A program made the position numbers. Below are positions 52,601-61,600 of a stretch of DNA of 64,000 nucleotides, in pieces (positions within the stretch are counted from its first letter, which is position 1; every line of letters starts with the position of its first letter). The stretch spans positions 17,537 through 81,536 of the forward strand of contig CAZTTS010000001.1 of NCBI GenBank assembly GCA_964616165.1, read 5' to 3'. The DNA is from an uncultured Lachnospiraceae bacterium. Its GTDB lineage: Bacteria; Bacillota; Clostridia; TANB77; CAG-508.

Positions 52601-55600
52601 ACTATTAAACATGAATCAAGTTTAACTAGCTTAGATTTAACCCGCTTGCAAAATTTAAGAGTTTTAGCCTTAGAAAATAATATAAATTTGTTAGAAATAA
52701 AGGGGATTGAAGAATTAAAAAAATTAGAAGAACTCTCTTTACACCAAACTCCAGTAGAAAGCCCATTAAAAATAGATCAATTATTAGACCAAAACACATT
52801 AACAGAGCTAAGCTTAGATGTAGATATGTATCCTCAATTAGTACAAGAAAATCCTGAAATTGCAGAGAAGTTATTAGAAAAACAAGAAAACGAGGGACTT
52901 TCAGTTAATTTTAGAGAAAATTTAACAAATTTGAGAACACAAGAACTTTCACTTGAAAAGTTAAGAACAATGGATGAAAAAGTACAATTAATTTTAGAAG
53001 ATATAATAGATTTTGATTATACTACAGCAGAAAAAATTGCTGCAATATATACATATATTACTAAGAATATAACACAAAATAGAGAAGCTGACGTATTACA
53101 AAGAGAAATTCAATTACCTACTACAGGTATTGAATCAAAAGTTTTAGACGAAAAGTTTGAAAGAATGTTGGATGAAAAAAGATCTACATATAGTACCATT
53201 ATGAGAGAAGAAGGCATTTCGGAAGGCTATGCAAATTTAATGCATTATATGCTGAGGTCAATAGGTGTACGTTCAAAAGTTATAGAATCTCAGACTAATA
53301 AGGATATGAATAACTTAGATAGTAGAAGTAATCATTCAGTAATTAGAGTAATGATAGATAATGATTGGTACTATTTTGACCCTACTTTAGATAAAGAAAG
53401 ACGAGAATTTAAAAACTTTTTTAAAACAAAAGAAGAATTTAGTGAAAATCATGAATTGAGCGGACAAGAATTTGAAATACAAACTCCAATAATAAAAGCT
53501 TATACAAATTTAGAATTAACACAAATAACAAATAAGGTATATGGAGATATTGAAAGAAAAGAGAATCAATTAGAAGAAAATTCAATGAGTGCACATTTAA
53601 AAGATGGAAACATAGCTGCATATGAAGAAAAAACTTTAGGTACTGCAAGTGCATCAGCTAAAGTTGTGTCTGATAGCGTAAAAGAACAGTCTAACAGTGA
53701 TGGCGTTACTAAAGAATCTGATAGTTCTAGGGATTATGAAGTAAAAGATCAAGAGCGCACTCCTGAAGAAGAAACTCTAAAAAGTGATATGGAAGAAATA
53801 AAAGACAAGTTAATAGATTCGTATACAAGAGGAAAAATAACAAAAGAAGATTTAGACAGAGCATTAGGAAATTTAAAAAGAACACTTGAAGATAGAAAAA
53901 AAGAAGAAGTTAAAAAAGAAATAGAAAAAAAAGTAGAAGAAAATAAAGAGCAAGAACAAAAACAAGGAGATGAGCAGGAAGATGAGCAAGAAGAAAAACA
54001 AAAAGAAGAACAAGAAGATGAAGGTCGAGGACGTGGTCTATGGGACTAGAATTAAATAAAATATATTCAGAAGTATATAGTGTATTAGAAATGTTAGGTG
54101 ATGGTTTTGTTAATAAATTGCCAGCACATTTGTATACTTTGATTCAAGAAGAAAAGCTGCATGAATATAATCCACAATATACTTTGAGTATAGCATTAGA
54201 AGAACAAGATATTAAAAAAGAAGCATTGTCGATGATAGCACTATTTCATCTTACTTATTGGTGTGAAACTCCTGAAGAAAGAGAAGCATTAACTAAAAAA
54301 CTTGAAGGAAACAAAGTTAAGAATGAAGAAAGAAATATTAATGCAGAACTATTTCCAAAAAGACAAAAAAACATAGTGGAACCAATAGAAATTAGAGAAA
54401 ATCTTGAAATAATAGAAAAGAAAGAATCAATTTTACAAAAAATAATTAATAGAATTAAAAGAATTTTTTTAATAAGAGGAAGATAGTTTAATACGAAAAT
54501 ATTGACACAAAAACATATAAGTGGTATATTGCCTTAAATTAAAGGAGGTATAAAATAAACCATTTATTTTTTATTATTCTTATCTTAAATATACTTATTA
54601 TAATCTATTTCATATATTCAGTTTTTGAATCAATCTTTTTTCAAAACAAACAAGGAAGTAAATTAAAAAAAGAGCAATCAAAAAAGTAAAAGAGGTAAAT
54701 TGAAAAAATATTTATTATTTTTAATTTTTGTTATATTAATGTATTTTGGTATATATGCATATGTTTATCCAGTCTTTAATCTTTCTGAAGTCATATTTCC
54801 GTATGCTCTTCATCCATTTAATATAGTAAAAGAATATCCAGAATTATGGGACAAAATAAAGAAAATTTTTCATGTTTCAAATATTTTAGTCTTTTTTATT
54901 ATAAATTATATGACAATTACAGGTCAAATTTTAAAACAAGAAAAAGATAATATAAAGAAGATTAAAAGCAAAAAGAAATCAAAATCAAAAAATAATGATG
55001 AAAAGATTAATAATAATGAGTTAAATATATTATTAGGATTTAATGAGAAAGAAGAAGCTGTATATTTAAGGCAAAAGGCTTTATTTCAAAATATATTAAT
55101 AACGGGTAGTATTGGAACAGGCAAAACTTCTTCTGCTATGTATCCTATTACTAGACAACTTTTAGAATATAGGAATGAAGAAGGGAATCAAATAGGAGGT
55201 TTAGTTTTAGATGTTAAAGGAAATTATTATAAAGAAGTAAAAGAAATGTTAAAAAATGAAAATAGAGAAAAAGATTTAATTGTAATAGATCTGTCTGGAA
55301 ATATAAAGTATAATCCTTTAGATAAAAAAGATTTGAATCCGGAAATTTTAGCTAATAGACTAAAAAATATCTTGTTATTATTTAGCCCTGAAACAACAGA
55401 AAGTTTCTGGCTAGATAAAACAGAGAACTTAATTACTGAAGTTATTAAATTTATTAGAATATATAATGATTTTTATGTTGATTTTGTTGAACTTAATAAA
55501 ATTATTAATTCAAAAGAATATTATGAAAAAAAGTTATATGAAGTAAAAAAAAGATTGTATAAAGGAAAGTTAAGCAAAAAAGAAATTTATGATTTATCTA

Positions 55601-58600: not shown

Positions 58601-61600
58601 AAGAAAGTATCAATATATTTTCATTAGATGGAATTTTTAAAGGATTTGTATCTTTTGGCACCTTAAATATGACTGTTAGTTTTGCATTAAGATATATTTT
58701 AATAAAAATATTAATAATTGTATCACCAATTATGTTTGTATCAAAAGTTTTTAGCAAAACAGAAAAGATATTTAATGCATGGATCAAAGCCTTTATTTCA
58801 TTGCTTTTAATTCAACATTTAATTGCTATATTGCTAGTTTTAGCAGGATATTTGAAAATCCATTATTTAAGCACATTCAATAAAATAGCATATATTGGAA
58901 TAATATATGCTTTATCTAAATCTTTTTATATCTTTGAAAAAATATTTGGAGCCATTGCTCCAGATGTTCAAGTTAGTTTTCCTTTTAAATAATTGTTTCA
59001 ATAAAAGAATGAATAATAGGATGTGATTTATCTGGTCTTGCTTGAAATTCAGCATGGTAAGCAATAGCCATAAAGAATTTGTTTTTAGTATTTTCAATTA
59101 TTGCAATATTATTGTTGTCAGTAAAAGCAGAAACTATAAAATCATCTTTTTCTTCAAAATGATTTGTATATCTTGTTAATGAAGGAATTCTAAATCTTTC
59201 TAAAACTTTATTTGAATTATATATTTTATGTGCAATAGTATTATTTAAAATATTTACTTCTTTTGCACCAATTAATTTTTCTTGTATAATATTTTCTGGG
59301 AAAATATTAGATAGTTTAGAATAAAGAAAATCAAAACCTGCACCTATTGCTAAAAATGGAATATCTTTTTCTTTAACATAATTAAATAATTCTGATATTT
59401 TATCAAAGTCTTCAAATTTTATAGAAGATATTTCTCCTGGTAATAAAATACCTTTTGAATTCTTGAAAATTTCATCAAAAGATTTTTTATATAAATCTTT
59501 ATTATTTACCCAATTAATATTTATTTTGTATCCTAAGTTTAAGCCAGTATCATAAAGAGCTCTATATAATGATAGATATGCATCGTGTAATTCTGTATGA
59601 CTTCCGACCAAAGAAATTTCTATTTCATCTTTTGCAGATTTAAATCTTTCTATCATTGCTTCCCATTTAGCATGACCATTATTTGATTTATATTCGATAT
59701 GTAATTCTTCTTTTAATAAATTATCTAATCCTTCTTTTTGAAGATTTGTTGCAACTTCATAAATTATATCAACATTCTTAGCTTCAATTACAGAATCTTT
59801 TGGTAAAGAACAAAATCTTGCAATTTTACATTTCATATCTTCTGGAATGGCTTTAGCAGCTCTTAAAATTAAAATATTAGGCTTAATACCATAACTCATT
59901 AAATCCCTATAACTATATTGTGTTGGTTTAGTTTTTAGTTCTTCACTTATAGGGATGGTAGGCAGAAGAGTCAAATGTACAAATAGGGTATCATTAGGTC
60001 CTTTTAGATAAGAAAATTGGCGAATGGCTTCTAAAAATGGTTGAGACTCAATGTCTCCAATAGTTCCACCAATTTCAGTTATTACAATATCAGCATTATT
60101 TGAATTACCAGCTTCTTCTAAGTGTTTAATAATTTCATTTGTTACATGAGGAACAATTTGAATTGTTGCTCCACCAAAATCTCCATTAGCTTCTTTTTTG
60201 AAAATATTTGAATAAACTTTACCTGAACTTAAACTGCCCTCCTTAGAAAGATTTTCATCGATAAATCTTTCATAATGTCCTAAATCTAAATCTGTTTCTC
60301 CACCATCAGCAGTTACAAAAATTTCACCATGTTGTATTGGATCCATAGTTGAGGGGCTTGAATTTAAATAGGGATCAAATTTTTGGATATATATTTTAAA
60401 TCCTTTATTTTTTAATAATCTACCTATACTAGCAGCTATTAATCCTTTACCTAAACCTGAAACAACACCTCCAGTAACGAATATATATTTCTTCATGATC
60501 CCTCCTATTTATACTTTAAGAATATCAATAAAACTGTAGCAATACAATAAATAATTTTTTTTGTTTATAAAGATTAACTAGAATATTACACAAAAGAAAC
60601 ATAATAAGACTAGACAAAGATAAGCCTTTAAACATAAGGGTTACAGAAGCAGGAATATATGGTCTTTTTTAATAAAAAGGATGTTTAAAAAACAAAAAAG
60701 ACAGTGTTTTTTAAAAAATGATTTTTTAGAAAAACGAGAAATTAATTAAAACCCATGAAAGGAAAATTTTGCAAATATGGACAAAAAAACTAAATATATA
60801 ATACCTAAAAATTATGATTTTAAACCTAAATTATTTGGAATTATAGAATATAGATTGGGAATTTTTATATCTGCATTAACATTATTTCTTATTATAATAT
60901 TTCAAAGTTTTAAAATTGCAGCAATTATGAAATTACAAATTATAATAATAATTATTGTACCAATTTTAATGATTGGAACAATAGGAGTAAGAGGTGAAAA
61001 ATTCTTTGATATTTTAAAACTTTTATTCTTCTATTATCTAAAACCTAAAGTATATTTTTATTCAAAAAACGGTTTAAAATTGTTTGAAGGTAATTAAAGC
61101 CCATGCTTAGCTCTTATACGCGTTAAACTGTTATTTATTTATTGTATTTAATTAAATTTTATGTTAGTAAAATAAAAAACAAATGGCAAAATTTCATCTT
61201 TTAAAATATATCTTTACATGATATAATAAAAACACTAAAAAAATAAAAGGATGAGATTAAAGAGTATGAAGTTTGAAAGAGATGATAGATCAGGCTTATT
61301 CGAAAAAACAGAAATTTCAGATGTGTTTTTTACGGAATATATTTCTGAAGCACCAGCTGTTGCTGTTAAAGTATATACATATTTATTGTATTATACAAAA
61401 TATAATAAGGATATTTCTTTAAATGATTTACCTAAAATTTTGGGTATTACATATAATGAAATGAATGCTGCCTTAGAATATTGGACAAATAAGGGTGTAA
61501 TGATTAGAAAAGAATATGGCTATACATTGTCTTCTTTAGAAACAATTGAACTTCATAAATTATATAAACCTAAAATAGGTCTTACTGCAGAAGAAATAAA

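Follow-up and report, generated by a model that had tools for sequence, protein, structure and literature searches.

Why should the genes of what looks like one type IV secretion system (T4SS) lie tens of kilobases apart among essential genes and be headed by promoters of nearly the same sequence? This question was raised by the initial annotation of a 64-kb window of DNA (the whole stretch that we analyzed, from contig CAZTTS010000001.1) belonging to an uncultured Lachnospiraceae bacterium of the TANB77/CAG-508 lineage of Clostridia. The annotation described three look-alike promoters, here called P1 to P3, each directly upstream of a T4SS-like gene, and proposed that they bring a scattered, chromosomally embedded machine under common control. 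Our follow-up covered these 64 kb of the genome and ±10 kb around loci in relatives, which are numbered L001 to L090. The window has a G+C content of ~26%, and its GC skew changes sign at ~8 kb, beside dnaA (7783-9126), dnaN, recF, and gyrB, which indicates that it spans the replication origin. Overall, we consider it probable that P1 to P3 are extended -10 sigma-A-type promoters heading the units of one vertically inherited, origin-proximal T4SS-like machine.

The pattern TTGACA-N13/14-TGnTATATTGCC has three copies in the window, all on the plus strand and each at the head of T4SS-like genes:

14557..14587, plus strand: P1, with -35 element TTGACA at 14557-14562, a 16-nt spacer containing TG, -10 element TATATT at 14579-14584, and GCC at 14585-14587
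54502..54533, plus strand: P2, with TTGACA, a 17-nt spacer containing TG, TATATT, and GCC
57675..57706, plus strand: P3, a ~50-bp duplicate of P2, ahead of virB2-virB6

A search for TTGACA-N12-16-TGnTATATT returned exactly three matches in the window (14557-14584, 54502-54530, and 57675-57703), compared to 0.00 in dinucleotide-preserving shuffles, confirming that three look-alike promoters head T4SS-like genes. The coordinates first reported for them were right to within one base, copy 2 starting at 54502 rather than 54503. We counted five occurrences of the shorter string TATATTGCC where 0.8 would be expected, the P1 to P3 sites accounting for three of them. When the whole window was scanned, a perfect -35 element, TG, and a -10 element matching the consensus at five of six positions were combined at P1, P2, and P3 only; copies 2 and 3 are the sole sites of this kind in the 52- to 61-kb interval. 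Among strong promoter-like sites of the window, GCC follows the -10 element only at P1 to P3, and the discriminators elsewhere are A+T-rich. Over the 37-mer quoted in the initial annotation, copies 2 and 3 are the same at 35 positions, with the differences confined to two degenerate positions.

At all three sites we found TTGACA, a spacer within 16 to 18 nt, TGn, TAnnnT, and a location upstream of a gene start. P1 to P3 resemble sigma-A/sigma-70 promoters of the extended -10 (TGn) type in which the discriminator is rich in G+C. A perfect TTGACA, 16- to 17-nt spacing, TG at -15/-14, a -10 element with A2 and T6, and GCC together make up a strong-promoter architecture with discriminator-sensitive open complexes. 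In Firmicutes, stringent control operates via the initiating nucleoside triphosphate, not via ppGpp bound to RNA polymerase.

We compared the promoters across a close clade consisting of the window and L081, L084, L087, L088, L089, L001, and L002. In L087, L088, and L089, the trsD-like gene is preceded by an orthologue of P1, TTGACA-N13/14-TGATATATTGCC, and the more distant L071 has one without the GCC; the P2 orthologue is kept in L081, L084, L088, L001, and L002. The form TTGACA-N13/14-TG[AG]TATATTGC[CT] is retained at the virB4 heads (window, L087-L089) and at the virD4 heads (window and the five loci with a P2 orthologue), and the spacers diverge. In 188 kb of close-clade sequence, all 12 promoter-type occurrences of TATATTGCY head trsD/virB4 or peptide/virD4(/virB2) units, and both operon heads keep -35, TG, TATATT, and GCY in at least six close-clade species. 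P1 and P2 are non-homologous to each other yet of one design. Retention of the -35 element, TG, the -10 element, and GCY amid drifting spacers is a phylogenetic footprint, which supports the view that the promoters of both operon heads share an architecture under selection. From the sequence and its conservation, we infer that P1 to P3 are active sigma-A promoters giving coordinated expression. Of the common control originally proposed, the conserved promoter design at both operon heads thus stands; the near-identity of copies 2 and 3 reflects a duplication, and co-regulation is a prediction.

We also observed strong conservation upstream of virD4 outside the close clade. Four distant relatives (L004:9740-9800, L013, L020, and L071) have nearly the same sequence in the promoter region of the virD4 operon (AAAAAGTATAGACAAAT...AAAAAATGTTATATTATAA), which lies ~200 bp ahead of virD4. 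The VirD4 proteins of these four are each only ~50% identical to that of the window, so the conservation of the upstream non-coding sequence is unusually strong.

The genes downstream of P1 to P3, together with one gene overlooked in the initial annotation (the VirB3/PrgI-like gene), are as follows:

14608..15339 (open reading frame [ORF] from ATG 14554), plus strand: TrsD/TraC-like protein, corresponding to a VirB4 N-terminal domain encoded on its own (matches NCBIfam VirB4_plasma with E=2.2e-5 over positions 97-243)
15284/15320..17134, plus strand: VirB4-family ATPase, the C-terminal two-thirds of a classical VirB4, with Pfam, NCBIfam, and PDB matches
17082..17816, plus strand: receiver-like N-domain protein, the remnant of a ParA/MinD-type ATPase gene; true start probably ATG 17109
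17836..18588, plus strand: conserved all-helical protein, in relatives invariably located between the ParA-like gene and gyrA
54555..54689, plus strand: 44-codon membrane-peptide ORF that opens the virD4 operon, with an ATA start located 5 nt downstream of the Shine-Dalgarno (SD) sequence AAAGGAGGT
54700..56415, plus strand: VirD4/TraG-type coupling protein (T4CP); its N terminus carries a membrane anchor, and both Walker motifs (A and B) are intact
57770..58138, plus strand: VirB2-like T4SS pilin, with a signal peptide, two transmembrane (TM) helices, and a conserved KKFSFGDEE loop
58138..58992, plus strand: VirB6-like polytopic membrane protein, with family-level support
60777..61097, plus strand: VirB3/PrgI-like small 2-TM protein, cut off from virB6 by pyrG on the other strand

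Two of the gene assignments need little qualification. Hidden Markov model (HMM) searches placed both ATPases above Pfam cut-offs, bearing out their original identification: VirB4 matches PF19044 (P-loop_TraG; 64 bits, cut-off 25.8) and PF12846 (AAA_10; 46 bits, cut-off 27.5), and VirD4 matches PF10412 (TrwB_AAD_bind; 36.4 bits, cut-off 20.5) and PF12696 (TraG-D_C; 27.2 bits, cut-off 22). VirB4 also matches NCBIfam NF045971 (conju_CD1110; E=1.8e-78, under the equivalog cut-off) and PDB 4ag5, a VirB4 structure (E=2.8e-37), and a representative search returned 6522 relatives. For VirD4 there are >5000 homologues, the best 120 listed being 46 to 97% identical to the window protein, and the GxGKT and DE residues of Walker A and B are invariant in 15 homologues. 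P1 does not lead directly into virB4, as had been described, but into the TrsD-like gene followed by virB4; likewise, P2 leads into the membrane-peptide ORF, which is conserved in 58 loci, and then virD4.

The TrsD-like ORF is separate from virB4 in all relatives examined and has its own SD sequence, and its orthologues carry a precomputed match to PF26593 (TraC-like). Given that the frame offsets differ between species, the TrsD-like and VirB4 ORFs represent a conserved gene pair rather than a frameshift. We considered and rejected a VirB4 frameshift pseudogene, since L013, L020, L022, L071, and L087-L090 share the two-ORF layout, complete with its own SD and start; a programmed frameshift was ruled out by the varying offsets. 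Among known T4SS components, its counterpart is TrsD, which occurs in pGO1-type and Patescibacteria systems (PMC12102498), so the TrsD-like name.

The smaller membrane proteins are recognizable mainly as families, so the VirB2 and VirB6 assignments hold at that level while the window proteins themselves fall below threshold. The window pilin scores E=1e-3 against PF18895 (19.5 bits, cut-off 26.6) and E=4.5e-3 against PF04956; in its family, PF18895 (T4SS_pilin) matches 31 of 32 orthologues (best E 3e-6) and TrbC matches 14. The VirB6-like protein of the window has an NCBIfam match to PRK13852 (E=4e-4, far under the cut-off) and no Pfam or PDB match. TrbL/VirB6 is the sole Pfam family found in its orthologues (4 of 29, best E 5.7e-5), and in 73 of the 80 VirD4-centred loci, virB6 comes next after the pilin gene. 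For the VirB3-like family, PrgI (PF12666) is the top match (6 of 32 orthologues, best E 1.1e-3), the window protein itself having none; its N-terminal motif FIFPKNYxFKxKLLG is conserved. We found the VirB3-like gene in 76 of 90 loci plus the window, and in 73 an ORF could be called; in those distant relatives that were inspected, it comes immediately after virB6.

Two further genes accompany virB4. In most relatives, the ParA-like protein has 350 to 393 amino acids (L013:2948-4060, L071:2864-3916, L090:11822-13003) and combines a receiver-like domain with a ParA/MinD ATPase (CbiA/ParA, PF01656, 2.4e-10), an architecture like that of CpaE/TadZ or VirC1. In the clade of the window, it is reduced to 219 to 244 amino acids with a lysine-rich tail and no P-loop; the window copy showed no Pfam match and no Walker A motif. 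The gene for the helical protein is present in 39 of the 80 VirD4-centred loci. Its product (17836-18588) had no Pfam, NCBIfam, or PHROG match, a PDB profile search was empty, and its AlphaFold2 model is poor (predicted local distance difference test score 55.7).

Some neighboring genes deserve mention. A NERD-domain (nuclease-related) protein gene (18779-19525) directly follows the virB4 cluster and occupies the same place in L087, not in distant relatives. In L089, a reverse-transcriptase (RVT_1) gene (172-1122) lies immediately upstream of the TrsD-like gene, replacing gyrB. Between gyrA and the virD4 operon, at 47234-48187, is a gene for a G5 and 3D-domain protein (RpfB/YabE-like, lytic-transglycosylase fold), with precomputed Pfam matches in L081, L084, and L087-L089; it is a candidate for a VirB1-type wall hydrolase, its membership of the system being only putative. 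Immediately upstream of P2, 52259-54486 encodes a 596-amino-acid protein with leucine-rich repeats (LRR) and a transglutaminase core, no signal peptide, and a very acidic Glu/Lys-rich C-terminal tail, followed by a 148-amino-acid ORF; both occur at that position only in the close clade (L081, L084, and L001). That either is a substrate or accessory of the machine is pure speculation. The sole Rfam match in the window is one tRNA (48309-48381).

We then asked whether the dispersed arrangement is an original feature of the system. In a scan using one genome per species, at least 422 genomes encode a VirD4 relative, all of them uncultured gut "Clostridia" metagenome-assembled genomes, including Clostridium sp. 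CAG:273, CAG:492, and CAG:567 and Ca. Scatovivens. CAG-492 belongs to TANB77, an uncultured reduced-genome order (PMC11680825). Across 80 VirD4-centred genome loci, we found a conserved order: the peptide gene, virD4, virB2, virB6, the virB3-like gene, a dnaB-like gene, and dnaI, converging on gyrA, the helical-protein gene, the parA-like gene, virB4, and the trsD-like gene. This synteny beside gyrA and dnaB persists in ~80 species at 45 to 60% protein identity. On a 1.69-Mb contig (L090), the order dnaA-dnaN-recF-gyrB-trsD-virB4-parA-X-gyrA, converging on dnaI-dnaB-virB3-virB6-virB2-virD4, fits within ~13 kb. In the closer relatives L087-L089, whose VirB4 is 76 to 83% identical, the virB4 cluster is 4 to 6 kb from gyrA and virD4 is ~11 kb downstream of virB4. 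The scattered, non-canonical organization that had been proposed therefore does not describe the system, since its ancestral layout is two compact operons flanking gyrA.

In the window, the T4SS-like genes are dispersed over 47 kb. A ~21-kb block (20090-41023) fills the interval between the virB4 cluster and gyrA, which is the 4- to 6-kb gap of L087-L089. It encodes a methyltransferase, an epimerase, UDP-galactopyranose mutase, GT2 glycosyltransferases, an ABC ATPase, alr, an amino-acid kinase, NUDIX, CotH, a polysaccharide deacetylase, and two restriction-modification systems, and the second operon is interrupted by asnA and pyrG. The 40-kb scatter is a recent, derived state, produced by insertion of this polysaccharide/restriction-modification island, asnA, and pyrG in the lineage of the window. 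Within the block, an MmeI-family type IIL restriction-modification gene is split into 33240-34406 (N-terminal/helicase-spacer part) and 39446-41023 (methyltransferase, target recognition domain, and C-terminal part) by an insert of ~5 kb (34728-39352), which carries a HaeIII-type C5 methylase (34728-35714), a HaeIII endonuclease (35733-36704), and four unknown ORFs.

The initial annotation had placed the system in the chromosome, among replication genes and apart from any relaxase or integrase, and this holds for the window and for the flanks of six relatives: scans of the window ORFs and the precomputed Pfam lists for L081, L084, and L087-L090 revealed no relaxase or integrase domain. It had also asked whether the genes of relatives sit inside an integrative and conjugative element (ICE) with relaxase and integrase; instead, relatives keep the fixed origin-proximal position. 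Homologues do exist on plasmids (1073 plasmids carry VirB4 relatives, mostly conjugative Firmicutes plasmids), with overall identities of 22 to 32% (VirB4 ≤32%, VirD4 ≤30%), and no relatives were found on IMG/VR viral contigs. Given the fixed position in ~80 species and the lack of relaxase and integrase in the inspected regions, the T4SS-like system is, as judged from its genes and their surroundings, chromosomal and vertically inherited rather than carried by a plasmid or ICE.

The same comparisons explain why copies 2 and 3 are so alike. The relevant features are:

56423..56449, both strands: bidirectional intrinsic terminator with a 12-bp stem, ending the VirD4 transcript and the convergent asnA transcript
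56527..57543, minus strand: asnA (PF03590, 1.5e-106), which is not part of the machine and splits the ancestral virD4-virB2-virB6 operon
57707..57727, no strand assigned: perfect 21-bp palindrome TTAAACTTTTTAAAAGTTTAA at the predicted 5' end of the P3 transcript; functional evidence is weak

Only the window and L081 (97% identical) have asnA between virD4 and virB2. In L084 (79%), L001 (74%), and L002 (69%), asnA is not at this site, and the virD4 stop abuts or overlaps the virB2 start. The inserted asnA carried ~100 bp of its own upstream region, its 5' flank being homologous to the asnA flank of L001. Right after this flank, ~50 bp match the virD4-operon promoter exactly; next come a remnant of the 3' end of virD4 and the ancestral virB2 SD sequence. 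Because of this remnant, the ancestral SD, and the homology of the asnA flank, we attribute the near-identity of copies 2 and 3 to promoter duplication, not to convergence imposed by a regulator; P3 is a ~50-bp duplicate of P2 that repaired the operon after asnA was inserted.

A second conserved peculiarity concerns translation. As the initial annotation observed, P1 overlaps ATG 14554 of the VirB4-region ORF (ATGTTGACA), and it predicted a non-ATG start (ATT or ATA) after AAAGGAG. This SD sequence is present, at 14595-14601 rather than 14594-14600, and is followed in frame by ATT 14602, ATA 14605, and ATA 14608. The probable start of the TrsD-like gene is ATA 14608, with ATA 14605 and ATT 14602 as alternatives, and the start with the best SD is ATA or ATT in 8 of 8 loci. 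The prediction extends to virB4 and the membrane-peptide gene. For virB4, the SD AAAGGAGGG (15307-15315) precedes ATT 15320, which is the probable start (ATG 15284 is the alternative); L087 has ATG at exactly that codon, and the start is non-canonical in 7 of 11 loci. In the membrane-peptide ORF of the window, L001, L002, L081, and L088, in-frame ATG, GTG, and TTG are all absent, and ATA lies 5 to 6 nt after GGAGG. Its best start is non-canonical in 33 of 58 loci, of which 22 have ATA. With the same crude start-caller, control genes start mostly with ATG (VirB2, 60 of 70; VirB3, 67 of 76; dnaB-like, 47 of 61; dnaI, 16 of 21), and ATG is used by every housekeeping gene of the window with a strong SD. 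The ATA/ATT sites are at 14602-14610, 15320-15322, and 54555-54557 in the window, and similar sites occur in L001, L002, L013, L020, L022, L071, L081, and L087-L090; housekeeping genes of these sequences begin with ATG. AUA and AUU are near-cognate codons and poor initiators, against which initiation factor 3 (IF3) discriminates, infC being the classic case. Behind a strong promoter, weak start codons of this kind suggest that output is deliberately kept low or is conditional, and the ATA/ATT starts may act as an IF3-sensitive translational throttle.

Taken together, these results are probably best explained by the following course of events. The ancestral chromosome carried one operon between gyrB and gyrA (promoter, trsD-like gene, virB4, parA-like gene, and helical-protein gene) and another (promoter, 44-amino-acid membrane peptide, virD4, virB2-like pilin, virB6, and virB3/prgI-like gene) leading to dnaB/dnaI. 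In the lineage of the window, the ~21-kb island, asnA, and pyrG were inserted; asnA severed virB2-virB6 from their promoter, and the ~50-bp copy of P2 would have restored their expression. Co-expression would then depend on the shared, selected promoter design rather than on a single operon, with ATA/ATT initiation codons adding a translational throttle on three genes: the trsD-like gene, virB4, and the gene for the membrane peptide. The machine itself would be a domesticated offshoot of a monoderm conjugation apparatus of the mating-pair formation (MPF) class FATA, with a VirB2-like pilin and a coupling protein and no linked relaxase. Its cargo is probably protein or DNA passed between these reduced-genome gut bacteria and neighboring cells, not a mobile element in transfer.

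Several observations weigh against this explanation. The promoters of distant relatives read TAGACA...TGTTATATTATAA or TTGACA-N17-TATAAT, with no GCC at either operon head, and the region upstream of the VirB3-like gene contained neither a promoter of the P1 to P3 type nor a conserved motif. Outside the clade the motif is generic, being present without T4SS linkage in at least 120 unrelated metagenome contigs. The matches listed in a metagenome contig scan for TTGACA-N13/14-TGRTATATTGCC were unrelated (median GC 47%), and one contig among them has a VirB4-like gene, ~5 kb from the motif; the scan shows that the motif is not diagnostic by itself, and it says nothing about this clade. VirB6 and VirB3 are assigned from scores below threshold, neither a VirB8-like protein nor a VirB1-like hydrolase was found by HMM among the linked genes, and the GCY element may have no regulatory meaning. 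P1 to P3 could instead be generic, near-consensus constitutive promoters, with copies 2 and 3 alike by recent duplication, no dedicated common control, and a functionless GCC. The spread of the motif among unrelated contigs and its absence at the VirB3-like gene favor this account, as do its composition (consensus -35, TG, and five of six -10 positions), the demonstrable origin of P3 as a duplicate, the lack of any regulator gene linked to the P1 to P3 units, and the lack of conservation of the P3 palindrome. It accounts poorly for GCY, which follows the -10 element at both non-homologous operon heads in at least six species while the spacers diverge, is not found at the other strong promoters of the window, and was gained together at both promoters in this clade, distant relatives lacking it at both. 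We regard the generic account as possible but somewhat unlikely. A repressor acting on the 21-bp palindrome at +1 of copy 3, the operator role suggested in the initial annotation, is far less credible. The palindrome is real, a perfect 10+1+10 arrangement immediately after the -10 element and GCC of P3, and the window holds five palindromes with 10-bp arms compared to ~1.6 expected. However, it is lost through two substitutions in L081, a relative with 97% identical proteins, it has no counterpart at P1 or P2, and as an RNA hairpin it folds no better than shuffled sequence (z = -0.82). One half, TTAAACTT, is ancestral promoter-flank sequence seen in L002, so the palindrome may be an artifact of a rearrangement junction. 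We therefore rejected it as an operator or RNA hairpin.

Two further alternatives concern the machine rather than its promoters. The genes might be remnants of a decaying ICE, the split VirB4 and the dispersal reflecting pseudogenization; VirB4 is indeed encoded by two ORFs that overlap in different frames, this clade has a truncated ParA-like gene, the genes are spread across 47 kb, and the linked genes yielded no hydrolase or VirB8-like gene. This idea is largely refuted, and we consider it the least credible of those discussed here, because the TrsD-like and VirB4 genes are split in every relative examined, each with its own SD and start, and match the known TrsD arrangement (PMC12102498), the VirD4 Walker motifs are invariant, VirD4 homologues are numerous, the genes remain syntenic beside gyrA and dnaB, and the promoters are under purifying selection. 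Alternatively, the system might be a ComB-like T4SS for DNA uptake (competence) or DNA release, whose position near replication genes reflects DNA handling. The ComB system of Helicobacter is likewise chromosomal, relaxase-less, and conserved, and most relatives of the window have a ParA-like ATPase reminiscent of VirC1, a ParA-like protein that positions DNA substrates. To our knowledge, ComB systems lack a coupling protein, whereas VirD4 is here the best-conserved component and shares an operon with the pilin and VirB6; no ComEC or ComEA gene is linked, and closeness to gyrA/dnaB is equally explained by conserved origin-proximal synteny. Although some Patescibacteria T4SS loci adjoin comF, recG, and radA (PMC12102498), a competence or DNA-release role seems improbable to us.

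The reading of P1 to P3 as promoters of one inherited, pilin-bearing machine invites comparison with known systems. By analogy, the closest is the T4SS of Patescibacteria (candidate phyla radiation, CPR; Wang et al. 2023; Quinonero-Coronel et al. 2025), which is chromosomal, vertically inherited, near dnaA, and relaxase-less, comprises TrsD-like, VirB4, VirB3, and VirB6 proteins and VirB2-like pilins, and is essential for epibiotic growth of Southlakia (PMC10633639, PMC12102498). Both systems are monoderm with an MPF-FATA-like core (VirB4 and, in the window as family-level candidates, VirB3/PrgI and VirB6), a separate TrsD-like protein beside VirB4, a VirB2-like pilin, no linked relaxase, vertical inheritance, and proximity to dnaA/dnaN (Southlakia tags SEML1_0006-0019), and the hosts of both have reduced genomes and are uncultured or host-dependent. 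They differ in host (Bacillota/Clostridia of the TANB77 type, not CPR) and in pilin genes (one in the window, an array of six in Patescibacteria). In addition, the window has a conserved VirD4 in the pilin operon, whereas in Southlakia no coupling protein was recognized or found essential, and the Clostridia system has an extra ParA-like ATPase and helical protein. As far as the genes allow a comparison, the window system appears to share all structural hallmarks of the Patescibacteria T4SS that could be tested.

Gram-positive conjugation systems of MPF class FATA (pGO1 trs, pCF10 prg, the Clostridioides difficile CTn2 CD1110 family, and Tn916/ICEBs1) include the best NCBIfam matches of VirB4 (conju_CD1110 and VirB4_plasma) and likewise have TrsD-like, PrgI-like, VirB6-like, and VirD4-like parts. 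Identity to them is only 25 to 32%, however, with scores under equivalog cut-offs; the window and the flanks of relatives yielded neither relaxase, oriT, or integrase nor a VirB1-type hydrolase or VirB8-like gene, the window system is fixed between gyrB and gyrA clade-wide rather than on a mobile element, and it has the VirB2-like pilin that they lack. The rvh system of Rickettsiales and Helicobacter ComB also comprise several chromosomal islands, have no relaxase, and are vertically inherited, but they are diderm MPF-T systems with VirB7-B11 (ComB without VirD4), whereas the dispersal in the window is recent and its ancestral state compact. In the literature, we found no paper linking TANB77/CAG-508 to a T4SS or describing this Clostridia system; the published TANB77 "pilin" cluster is a Tad pilus, a different system. 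TANB77 genera have been tied to immunotherapy response, and the organisms are uncultured (PMC11680825).

What emerges from these genomes is a vertically inherited T4SS with a pilin, located near the origin throughout a large, uncultured clade of gut Clostridia. A relaxase-less T4SS design with a pilin would thus lie beside dnaA in hundreds of their species, for which the only monoderm precedent is Patescibacteria, whose VirB2-like pilins were described in a 2025 review as the sole exception among Gram-positive T4SSs (PMC12857230). The duplication of P2 into P3 provides a clean natural case of operon repair following gene insertion, and the conserved ATA/ATT starts point to unusual translational control. 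A broader proposal, which we offer as a speculative and rather unlikely one, is that TANB77-like Clostridia carry a core, possibly essential, Patescibacteria-style pilus-forming T4SS, set by dedicated promoters and an IF3-sensitive AUA/AUU gate, with which they exchange macromolecules with bacteria or host cells in an epibiont-like dependence that makes them resist cultivation. If the relaxase-less, pilin-bearing design itself holds in hundreds of these species, the domestication of a conjugation machine into a core organelle would have occurred, or spread, beyond CPR, the coupling-protein-containing variant could help to identify the substrate, and there would be a concrete hypothesis for the dependence of these gut bacteria on others.

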